DNA of 64,000 bases from Candidatus Nomurabacteria bacterium (GCA_020639315.1 JACKGM010000002.1:30321-94320); one strand, 5' to 3'; numbered from the stretch's first letter, positions 24,725 to 25,094 are shown. The notes: a model not told the origin generated them from the sequence alone. Numbers and translations: made by a program.

Positions 24725-25094
24725 GCACTTCCCTCCCCTTGCGTCATATCCCAAATTTCCGCACTCCTCTCCTCTGTCATCTTCGGATTACTCGTAGGGT
24801 AATACCGGAGATCCAGTATTTGAATTGAATCCCAGAAATGCAAAATACTGGATCCCCCGTAAGTTCTCCGAACTTCGGAGGATGACAATGCACAATGCGG
24901 GATACTGGATCCCCCGTAATTCTCTATGAGAATTCGGAGGATGACAATGCAGAGGGGCGGGTTTCGGAGGATGACAATGCACATTGCGGGATACTGGATC
25001 CCCCGTAAGTTCTCCGAACTTCGGAGGATGACAATGCAGAGGCGGGTTTCGAAGGGTGACAAGAGAGGGGCGAGTTTCGGAGGGTGATAATGCA
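24725..25094. repeat. REP-like module cluster (mirror image of the 18219..18690 architecture; doublet 24775..24887)
   Basis: Starts directly after the antiporter stop codon. Module positions were checked against the frames of spurious ORFs 24721..25095 and 24788..24982. Confidence 0.9.

Follow-up and report, generated by a model that had tools for sequence, protein, structure and literature searches.

Ordered arrays of TGTC-headed hairpin modules between the genes of a Candidatus Nomurabacteria genome: a probable mosaic of CGTC-tagged REPs that is also the integration site of an IS110-family element

The DNA described here is a stretch of 64,000 nucleotides (nt) from Candidatus Nomurabacteria bacterium (GCA_020639315.1, JACKGM010000002.1:30321-94320), hereafter the window, given as one strand, 5' to 3'; the analysis of the genome covered these 64 kb. 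Its intergenic regions hold arrays of short hairpin-forming repeats, or modules, and the array from which the study starts occupies positions 24725-25094, between a Na+/H+ exchanger gene and pyrH. The window has a G+C content of ~41% and carries a set of housekeeping genes (dnaX, dnaB, murC/B, parAB, pyrH, mreBCD, genes for penicillin-binding proteins, uvrC and the ATP synthase operon). For its UMP kinase, the relatives that carry a name come from Patescibacteria/Saccharimonadia metagenome-assembled genomes (MAGs) and are 58-63% identical, and the only close relative (87%) lies on a 4-kb Logan contig. Sequence identical to the window is carried by one NCBI MAG, GCA_020428505.1.

The focal array (24725-25094) is composed of full modules, 28-nt half-modules and conserved linkers, and on the plus strand it reads degenerate half-C, B(+), spacer, A(-), A(-), half(-), A(-), half(-), half(-), where the letters denote types of lower stem. 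Its components are the following:

24741..24774, plus strand: degenerate C-type half unit (GCGTCATATCCCAAATTTCC and a C/T-rich flank) on the head side of the B module; from the sequence, aligning with the C modules of other arrays.
24775..24819, plus strand: full module, type B (CTTCGG/CCGGAG); covariance model 65.2 bits, and fold.
24820..24844: tail-to-tail spacer of 25 nt (TTGAATTGAATCCCAGAAATGCAAA), conserved across all doublets.
24845..24887, minus strand: full module, type A (CCTCCG/CGGGGG; upper stem GTTC/GAAC); covariance model 67.9 bits.
24888-24901: conserved 14-nt linker before the second A; from linker conservation.
24902..24946, minus strand: full module, type A, upper-stem variant TTCTC/GAGAA; covariance model 70.6 bits.
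24949..24976, minus strand: 28-nt half-module; from the head motif and the unit census.
24991..25033, minus strand: full module, type A; covariance model 67.9 bits.
25034..25089, minus strand: two tandem 28-nt half-modules, slightly degenerate; from the head motif.

A full module is 43-46 nt long and consists of a TGTC head, a 15-bp hairpin and a CCAGTAT tail. The hairpin is two-tiered: an 8-bp lower stem is followed by a fixed bulged A on the 3' side, an upper stem of 6-7 bp and a loop of 3-4 nt. Of the 27 copies aligned, 24 have the TGTC head, with an invariant G2 and with T3 and C4 conserved at 90% or more, and a CGTC variant of it occurs in the C'-type copies at 54900 and 2343-2377. The first pairs of the stem are A-U at columns 5-39 in 17 of 19 rows and U-A at columns 6-38 in all 19, and the CCAG that stands directly 3' of the palindrome has an invariant C38, A39 and G40 and a C37 that is at least 90% conserved.

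The stem itself varies in a compensated way. Pairing holds in 96.5% of the cells of the module alignment, whereas column shuffles give 78% and controls with a slid partner column 26-55%, and both sides are altered together in 8 of the 15 pairs (51 cells); the covariation score was matched by none of 500 shuffles. Three compensated types of lower stem coexist, namely A (CCTCCG/CGGGGG), B (CTTCGG/CCGGAG) and C (CTTCCA/TGGGAG), with C' (ATTCCA/TGGGAT) as a variant of the last, and for the upper stem seven or more compensated variants were counted. A T.G wobble (U.G, columns 9-35) is kept in 18 of the 19 distinct rows, so that one strand, called sense, folds better than its complement; the predicted DNA folds are -9.4 kcal/mol for sense versus -7.8 for antisense in one case and -7.2 versus -4.7 in another. 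The module is asymmetric both in sequence, through its head and tail, and in structure.

Modules are abundant in the window. There are 34 copies of the head TGTCATCCTCCGAA with two mismatches or fewer (0.35 expected) and 27 of the tail GGGGGATCCAGTATT (0.15 expected), counts far above the shuffled expectation. A covariance model (R1), built from the alignment of 27 module copies, finds 32 matches at E <= 0.002, every one of them intergenic, which divide into 27 strong copies and ~5 degenerate or truncated ones; the density is ~0.5 modules per kb. Together with the half-modules they form 13 intergenic clusters that cover ~2.7 kb, or 4.2% of the window, and several of these begin at or beside stop codons (18218/18219, 24724/24725, 61572/61577). 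The exact pattern of the commonest module has no match in a collection of one genome per species (185,579 species) and none in IMG/VR, and the search of metagenomes returned two short contigs, L002 and L003. Rfam at gathering thresholds reports three tRNAs only across the whole window, and no module.

Modules are often joined tail to tail in inverted doublets. The six doublets of the original prediction, which was made from the sequence of the window, were all found to within 1 nt (18406-18518, 24775-24887, 41583-41697, 44768-44882, 53471-53586 and 54949-55064; 113-116 nt each), and the spacer between their CCAGTAT ends measures 25 nt in five of them and 27 nt in the other. Their description as perfect-ended palindromes has to be corrected, given that the two arms are different module types, each of which folds on itself, and that complementarity between arms is limited to the ends (TGTCATC/GATGACA) and the tails. 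In a non-redundant census of junctions over the window and the contigs of its lineage, all eight tail-to-tail pairs are heterotypic (A with B in six, A with C in two). The doublets at 41583 and 44768 are not independent, because both sit in a direct duplication of 218 nt (41484-41701 and 44669-44886, 97% identical) each copy of which has an A-B doublet. Between these 218-nt repeats (41484-44886) there are an IS481/IS3-like transposase gene with an rve domain (42394-43668) and two unannotated open reading frames (ORFs).

Above the level of the doublet there is a conserved order. The unit orders that had been proposed for 24725-25094 and 18219-18690 are correct, and a collinear alignment confirms that one is the mirror image of the other: the second array has half-modules at 18231, 18262, 18290 and 18318, then A(+), A(+), spacer, B(-), C(-), two degenerate half-C(-) and an extra A(+). 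When the reverse complement of 18219-18642, 24725-25094, 54860-55185 and metagenome contig L002 are aligned, the four arrays are collinear over ~300 columns, in the order C or half-C, B (C' in L002), spacer, A with the GTTC upper stem, linker, second A, half-A. They differ by insertion or deletion of whole units, and between arrays the upper stem of the second A is wholly swapped, with compensation, for TTCTC, AATCC, ACTCC or GCTC. The remaining doublets, too, have a degraded A and linker upstream of their A module. The recurring unit is thus larger than the doublet, in agreement with the proposal that the array, and not only the module, is conserved. A third array of the window and arrays from other samples (L002 and further contigs) follow the same rules.

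The rules can be stated as junctions. Tandem A modules are 14-15 nt apart and joined by a conserved linker (yCnGCATTnTGCAT), C is followed by B after 7-8 nt, head-to-head modules are separated by 7-12 nt and a half-module by 0-3 nt from what follows. The census counts 12 half-to-half, eight half-to-A, six A-to-A and four C-to-B tandem junctions, and never B-to-C. On the head side, half-modules recur with a period of 28 nt. These rules hold in the window and in further contigs, so the predicted grammar does recur. Other clusters of the window are:

18219..18690: mirror-image array, which fills the convergent lipase/rplU intergenic region; from the covariance model and the flanking genes.
54870..55180: third array, with the syntax and orientation of the focal one (half-C, full C', full B, spacer, full A(-), full A(-), half-A(-), degenerate half).
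32532..33065: the largest cluster; a full C(-) head-to-head with three half-A, two full A and a degenerate full module, and a variant full module(-) head-to-head with two half-A and a full A.
53294..53643: full B(-), degenerate full module(+), A-C doublet, and a head-to-head full A(+).
41542..41706: degenerate full A and A-B doublet, in copy 1 of the 218-nt repeat.
44727..44891: degenerate full A and A-B doublet, in copy 2 of the 218-nt repeat (97% to copy 1).
36461..36549, plus strand: two tandem A modules, the first with a shortened tail.
10325..10385, plus strand: solitary B module, right after a copy of a MITE (miniature transposable element with inverted repeats).
61573..61625, plus strand: solitary A module; it takes up the space between the stop codons of the convergent genes atpC and uvrC.

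The half-modules that accompany the full ones are 28 nt long and comprise TGTC, the hairpin's 5' arm in full as far as the loop, and a C-rich stretch of 9 nt similar to CCCCTCTTC. One such arm, ATCCTCCGAAACCCG, is the same as the 5' arm of the variant with the ACCC stem, and the pyrimidine-rich flank of the half-modules also precedes most module heads. For neither strand of the half-module arrays is any structure predicted. Different arrays have half-module variants in common, and an 88-nt block (half, half, A) is repeated at 92%.

Having described the modules, their relation to known repeats can be considered. The superfamily of repetitive extragenic palindromes (REPs) tagged by CGTC is defined by an unpaired CGTC/TGTC head, A-T at the first and second stem positions and a short unpaired CCA tail (Di Nocera, De Gregorio & Rocco 2013, PMC3733652). 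The module has this signature, with an unpaired CGTC (or TGTC/CCTC) head, complementary A-T opening pairs and a CCA tail, and it departs from the dimensions of families CGTC-1 to CGTC-4 (stem 8-9 bp, loop 4-5 nt) by its 15 pairs and its loop of 3-4 nt; by signature it belongs to the superfamily, and it belongs to none of the four described families. High copy number, extragenic location, frequent heterodimers and, as far as the window goes, the lack of a nearby tyrosine transposase are common to both. The published families, however, form mostly head-to-head dimers and rarely clusters, whereas here the arrangement is tail-to-tail with a conserved spacer, tandems are frequent and arrays are large. 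Patescibacteria are outside the phyla surveyed for these REPs (PMC3733652).

The same class includes dRS3 of Neisseria and was described again in 2025 as NTS, or Ssn-related motifs (SRMs) (Chenal et al. 2025, PMC11893778). Its partner SsnA is a GIY-YIG nuclease of 94 amino acids (aa) that binds and cuts NTS as single-stranded DNA (ssDNA), on one strand only, and copies of the repeat usually stand on either side of the ssnA gene; SsnA is reported to depend most on the bases immediately 5' of the palindrome and on the C that directly follows it (PMC11893778). The near-invariant GTC head and CCAG tail of the module coincide with these positions. When the loop of the published SRM pattern, HGTCWYN(0-2)YYVSBRHN(0-5)WNVSBRGN(0-2)RNCYNB, is widened from 5 to 20 nt, the window yields 21 matches against 0.8 in shuffles, which means that head, lower stem and tail fit and that the "loop" holds the extra stem. 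As with NTS/SRM, the modules have a strand-specific asymmetry and cluster around genes; unlike NTS, for which arrays of 28-nt half-hairpins are not described, they comprise three coexisting stem types.

A looser pattern scan of the genome collection gave 10 loci, of which at least seven score as true hairpins with the covariance model. The design of a TGTCAT head, a hairpin and ATCCAGTATT is found in alphaproteobacterial, Planctomycetota and other Patescibacteria genomes; a copy in a Rhodomicrobium MAG has the same two-tier stem and bulged A, and the arrangement of head, hairpin and tail is also present in Bradyrhizobium, Phycisphaerae and three genomes of the Candidate Phyla Radiation (CPR; Gracilibacteria, Berkelbacteria and a Patescibacteria MAG). 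These hairpins in other phyla indicate that the design is widespread and that the family of the window is a long-stem variant of it. In a Patescibacteria MAG (DATIJC010000049.1), two TGTCAT...ATCCAG hairpins form a tail-to-tail dimer at 5272-5382, within an ORF (4897-5808) whose whole length matches NAD synthase, which suggests an in-frame intragenic REP insertion.

As regards the arrays, two or more REP types in fixed orientation, with conserved linkers and clustered, constitute an architecture of the type of bacterial interspersed mosaic elements (BIMEs), and the original view of REP-like hairpins in a BIME-like arrangement of inverted doublets is supported. Mosaic composition, alternating orientation, conserved linkers, recurring doublets and extragenic location are features of E. 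coli BIMEs and of the REPIN-RAYT system as well, but these are of the GTAG class, depend on a RAYT (REP-associated tyrosine transposase, of the IS200/IS605-type Y1 kind), have no tandem half-units and bear no sequence relation to the modules. The original statement that the sequence is unrelated to E. coli REPs therefore stands, although not in the sense of an orphan family, given that the modules carry the published signature of CGTC/TGTC-tagged REPs and NTS/SRM. It is probable, on the whole, that the elements are mosaic arrays, comparable to BIMEs and to Neisseria intergenic mosaic elements (NIMEs), of CGTC/TGTC-tagged REP hairpins, the class also called NTS/SRM, in Patescibacteria. No report of REP or SRM elements in Patescibacteria was found in the literature searched. 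With respect to the known class, the new features are the host group, the two-tier hairpin, the three co-evolving stem types with obligate pairing of A with B or C, the arrays of 28-nt half-hairpins and the link between a CGTC-class REP and IS110.

Several observations weigh against this assignment or against parts of it. The strict SRM pattern has no hit in the window, and it fails because the module's stem has almost double the published length of 8-9 bp. For the Neisseria enzyme, a change of stem sequence that kept the structure abolished SsnA activity (PMC11893778), and so a single enzyme for three stem types is not to be taken for granted. A small single-domain GIY-YIG gene (cd10448) was sought in the 64-kb window and none is there, a six-frame motif scan finding only UvrC, which makes the connection with Ssn one of motif resemblance. 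Covariation may also have another origin, as palindromes can stay complementary through templated repair without selection. Lastly, the similarity of half-modules is 0.62 within arrays and 0.59 between them (p = 0.19), no significant excess; this favours a model in which blocks of several units are copied or exchanged over one of slippage in place. Slippage alone, as a recent in-place tandem duplication of half-modules, was considered and, at this p value, dropped as a shown step.

The scan for partner genes gave UvrC, the IS110 transposase and the rve transposase, and nothing else. Among the ~57 ORFs of the window (all of sizeable length, scanned with Pfam or NCBIfam) there is no RAYT, Y1 or HUH transposase, and no GIY-YIG gene stands near the similar hairpins of other CPR genomes.

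One partner of the modules is shown directly, an insertion sequence (IS) of the IS110 family. Its parts and flanks in the window are:

845..2342, plus strand: IS110-family insertion sequence inside a module, with a non-coding left end of 280 nt.
1125-2303: transposase gene, 392 aa; Pfam PF01548 and PF02371.
803..844: to the left, spacer and tail end of the split module (left target half ...AAATACTGGATAT).
2343..2478: to the right, the remainder of a C'-type module (2343-2377, minus strand), a C-type half(-), a full A(+) and half a doublet spacer cut by the MITE.

The ORF at 1125-2303 also matches the NCBIfam model "IS110 family RNA-guided transposase" (E 6e-36, below the cut-off of the model), and 14 contigs, drawn from several samples, carry an identical transposase. 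The element (~1.5 kb) splits an antisense module at the same point in the window and in each of the 10 contigs read. With a slash at each junction, the sequence in A modules is ...AATACTGGATCC / C TTAAATAG ... AAAAGGGT / CCCGTAAG... and in C' modules ...GGATAT / C ... T / CCCATAAAT..., or in short ...ACTGGATCC/C-IS-T/CCCGTAA... and ...GGATAT/C-IS-T/CCCATAA.... The junction of the circular form would read AAAAGGGTC/TTAAATAG, and there is no target duplication beyond the shared C/TC. The flanks vary, with no fewer than three kinds on the left and four on the right. A multi-copy IS110-family element thus has the modules as its specific site of integration.

This behaviour has precedents. The IS110-family elements ISPpu9 and IS621 are known to target REPs, and they and ISPpu10 resemble the present element in their DEDD/IS110 transposase, long non-coding left end, fixed position in the REP, lack of a detectable target duplication and multiple copies; here, in contrast, the target is a CGTC-class and not a GTAG-class REP, and the bridge RNA is putative. 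Within the CGTC class, dRS3 is the target of a phage recombinase (PMC11893778). The dRS3 and intergenic mosaic elements of Neisseria, with the IS110-type recombinase of Nf phages, are alike in that a repeat is the target of the recombinase, and they differ in host phylum, in their short stem and in the insertion of filamentous prophages instead of a plain IS of 1.5 kb. As regards a guide RNA, three 8-mers of the left end match the donor ends (1001-1008, 1037-1044 and 1060-1067) and are no more than suggestive, and 6-mers of the left end that match the target are at chance level. An Rfam E-value search over the IS110 and its flanks gave no match, and a search of PDB sequences with the transposase gave no hit.

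The arrays are not fixed in the lineage. Contig L004 is syntenic with positions 23321-27610 (three consecutive proteins are 89%, 87% and 65% identical) and, in place of the 370-bp array and the promoter-like motif that separate the Na+/H+ exchanger gene from pyrH in the window, has a gap of 17 bp. Conversely, it has modules at two sites where the window has none, one upstream of the exchanger gene, the other following the third gene. Module presence thus differs at all three orthologous intergenic sites, which indicates that arrays are dispensable and have been gained or lost.

A second context is known for one segment. Positions 53577-55152 (1,576 nt: array, gene of unknown function encoding 368 aa, array) are 100% identical to 1331-2906 of a contig of GCA_020428505.1 (L026; JAGQMQ010000004.1), where they are flanked by the PGI and SecA genes, and in the window by glycosyltransferase and atpB genes; this reflects either rearrangement at the arrays or short-read misassembly. 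Contig L001 ends inside the focal array (L001 3629-3726), and L016 and L019 have hybrid IS flanks. Repeats of this kind mean that metagenome assemblies of the organism are fragmented and maybe chimeric.

In terms of mechanism, the modules would act as ssDNA hairpins recognised by a protein dedicated to them whose gene lies outside the window, the likeliest candidate, by motif resemblance, being an Ssn-type GIY-YIG single-strand nuclease, the demonstrated partner of the repeat class. The conserved T.G wobble and the more stable fold of the sense strand lend indirect support to a putative recognition of one strand only. Multi-unit blocks and not single modules may be what is copied between loci, whether arrays recombine or convert one another or some unknown enzyme does the copying, and half-modules could arise by breakage or template switching at the hairpin apex. 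Heterotypic doublets might be favoured because they avoid long perfect palindromes, an argument that has been made for other REP heterodimers.

Other explanations have to be weighed. The least improbable of them, although on balance we think it rather unlikely, is that the hairpins work in RNA, at the 3' ends of genes, as mRNA stabilisers, processing sites or terminators, and that their covariation reflects selection on RNA structure. Arrays that start at stop codons or within a few bases of them, the conserved G.U pair, the many compensatory pairs and the argument of Di Nocera et al. that many REPs are transcribed are all consistent with this proposal. However, every array has sense modules on both strands and the two mirrored arrays both follow plus-strand genes; the modules have no U tract, a terminator scan places no call on any of them, Rfam has no match, the arrays of half-modules are unstructured, and the relative with the 17-bp gap does without an array at the focal site. 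A role in RNA is in any case compatible with an explanation at the DNA level. It is less plausible that the doublet is a REPIN, that is, a non-autonomous transposon moved by a single-copy RAYT, with arrays as nested or adjacent insertions. The inverted doublets with conserved spacer and ends, their extragenic location and their variable presence among relatives would fit, and the original prediction used the label "REPIN-like"; this label is not sustained, in view of a head that is TGTC/CGTC and not GTAG, of the absence of a Y1/HUH transposase from the ORFs scanned and of doublet arms that are heterotypic in eight of eight cases. Such arms make the long hairpin of a REPIN impossible, and the doublet folds as separate hairpins with pairing of ends and tails. 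CGTC-class REPs are, moreover, reported as unassociated with tyrosine transposases (PMC3733652).

The IS110 element itself may be proposed as the cause, its bridge-RNA-guided recombination between modules building and shuffling the arrays while the modules persist as a safe harbour that absorbs the IS harmlessly. We give this proposal little credence. Its insertion at a fixed position in the window and the 10 contigs, with varied flanks, the known REP targeting by ISPpu9 and IS621, the use of dRS3 by a phage recombinase, the hybrid flanks of L016 and the second context of the array-gene-array segment argue for it; yet an insertion splits a module and creates none, the 6-mer matches between left end and target are at chance level, the alternative contexts may be short-read misassemblies at repeats, and what would be accounted for is the tolerance of modules, not their origin. 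That the mirrored order comes from a single recent segmental duplication, which the original prediction had named as the finding that would overturn its reading, or from chance resemblance, is very improbable. One pair of doublets does lie in a duplication of 97% identity, but the four collinear arrays differ by whole-unit indels and by fully compensated swaps of the upper stem, the junction rules extend to further contigs, and the motif counts of the window are well beyond shuffled expectation; collinearity and shared rules at independent loci contradict one recent event. A bolder and decidedly doubtful idea is that the arrays are working parts of a recombination system, in which modules would serve as crossover sites for the IS110 bridge recombinase, a hairpin-specific nuclease or both, and genes bracketed by arrays would move as cassettes. 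The 100% identity of 53577-55152 between different neighbours in GCA_020428505.1 fits this idea, and half-modules, which have only the 5' arm, could be the trans-pairing halves of split nuclease substrates, substrates of a kind shown to be possible for SsnA in vitro. If true, the arrays would be a built-in device for gene shuffling or for the control of incoming DNA in a streamlined, DNA-scavenging CPR bacterium.

The preferred reading, mosaic arrays of CGTC/TGTC-tagged REPs, bears on genome economy. The genomes of Patescibacteria are known to be very small and densely packed with genes, and here ~4% of 64 kb consists of ordered hairpin arrays, to which the IS110, the IS481-like transposase and the MITE are added; the density of modules is at least that of classic REP-rich genomes. 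The CGTC/NTS class would come to include a hairpin that is longer and two-tiered, whose three stem types co-evolve and pair in a strictly heterotypic way, and a CGTC-class REP would now be an IS110 target outside Neisseria. The reading predicts that the complete genome should hold an Ssn-like gene flanked by modules. In practice, the arrays break short-read assemblies and generate spurious ORFs.

The window also holds other repeats. The MITE is 163 nt long, with perfect terminal inverted repeats of 19 bp (TAACCCTGTTGCCATATAA), and its copies, 96-99% identical, are located as follows:

2484-2646, 8699-8861, 10158-10320, 34582-34744 and 44904-45066: full copies in the window.
41343-41361: solo end.
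L003, 813-975: copy on the metagenome contig.

Three of these copies abut REP modules or the doublet spacer. Two intergenic direct repeats are unrelated to the modules, 8534-8691 with 36295-36452 (89%) and 9083-9190 with 33262-33369 (83%), and the former resembles the sequence upstream of the array in L002. A promoter-like motif, GTCAAAAG..TGGTTT..TTGCTATA(T)AAT, recurs upstream of genes:

9044-9087, 22018-22061, 25098-25145, 27632-27669, 34524-34571 and 53238-53285: copies of the promoter-like motif.

The DNA that L004 lacks includes the copy in front of pyrH, and two copies directly abut a module or the MITE. As for the spurious ORFs, those of 117-135 aa to which the arrays give rise are at 24721-25095(-), 18109-18516(+), 32515-32868(+) and 54799-55152(-). 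The antisense heads read CGGAGGATGACAATG, that is, a GGAGG similar to a Shine-Dalgarno sequence followed by ATG, and this could mislead gene callers.

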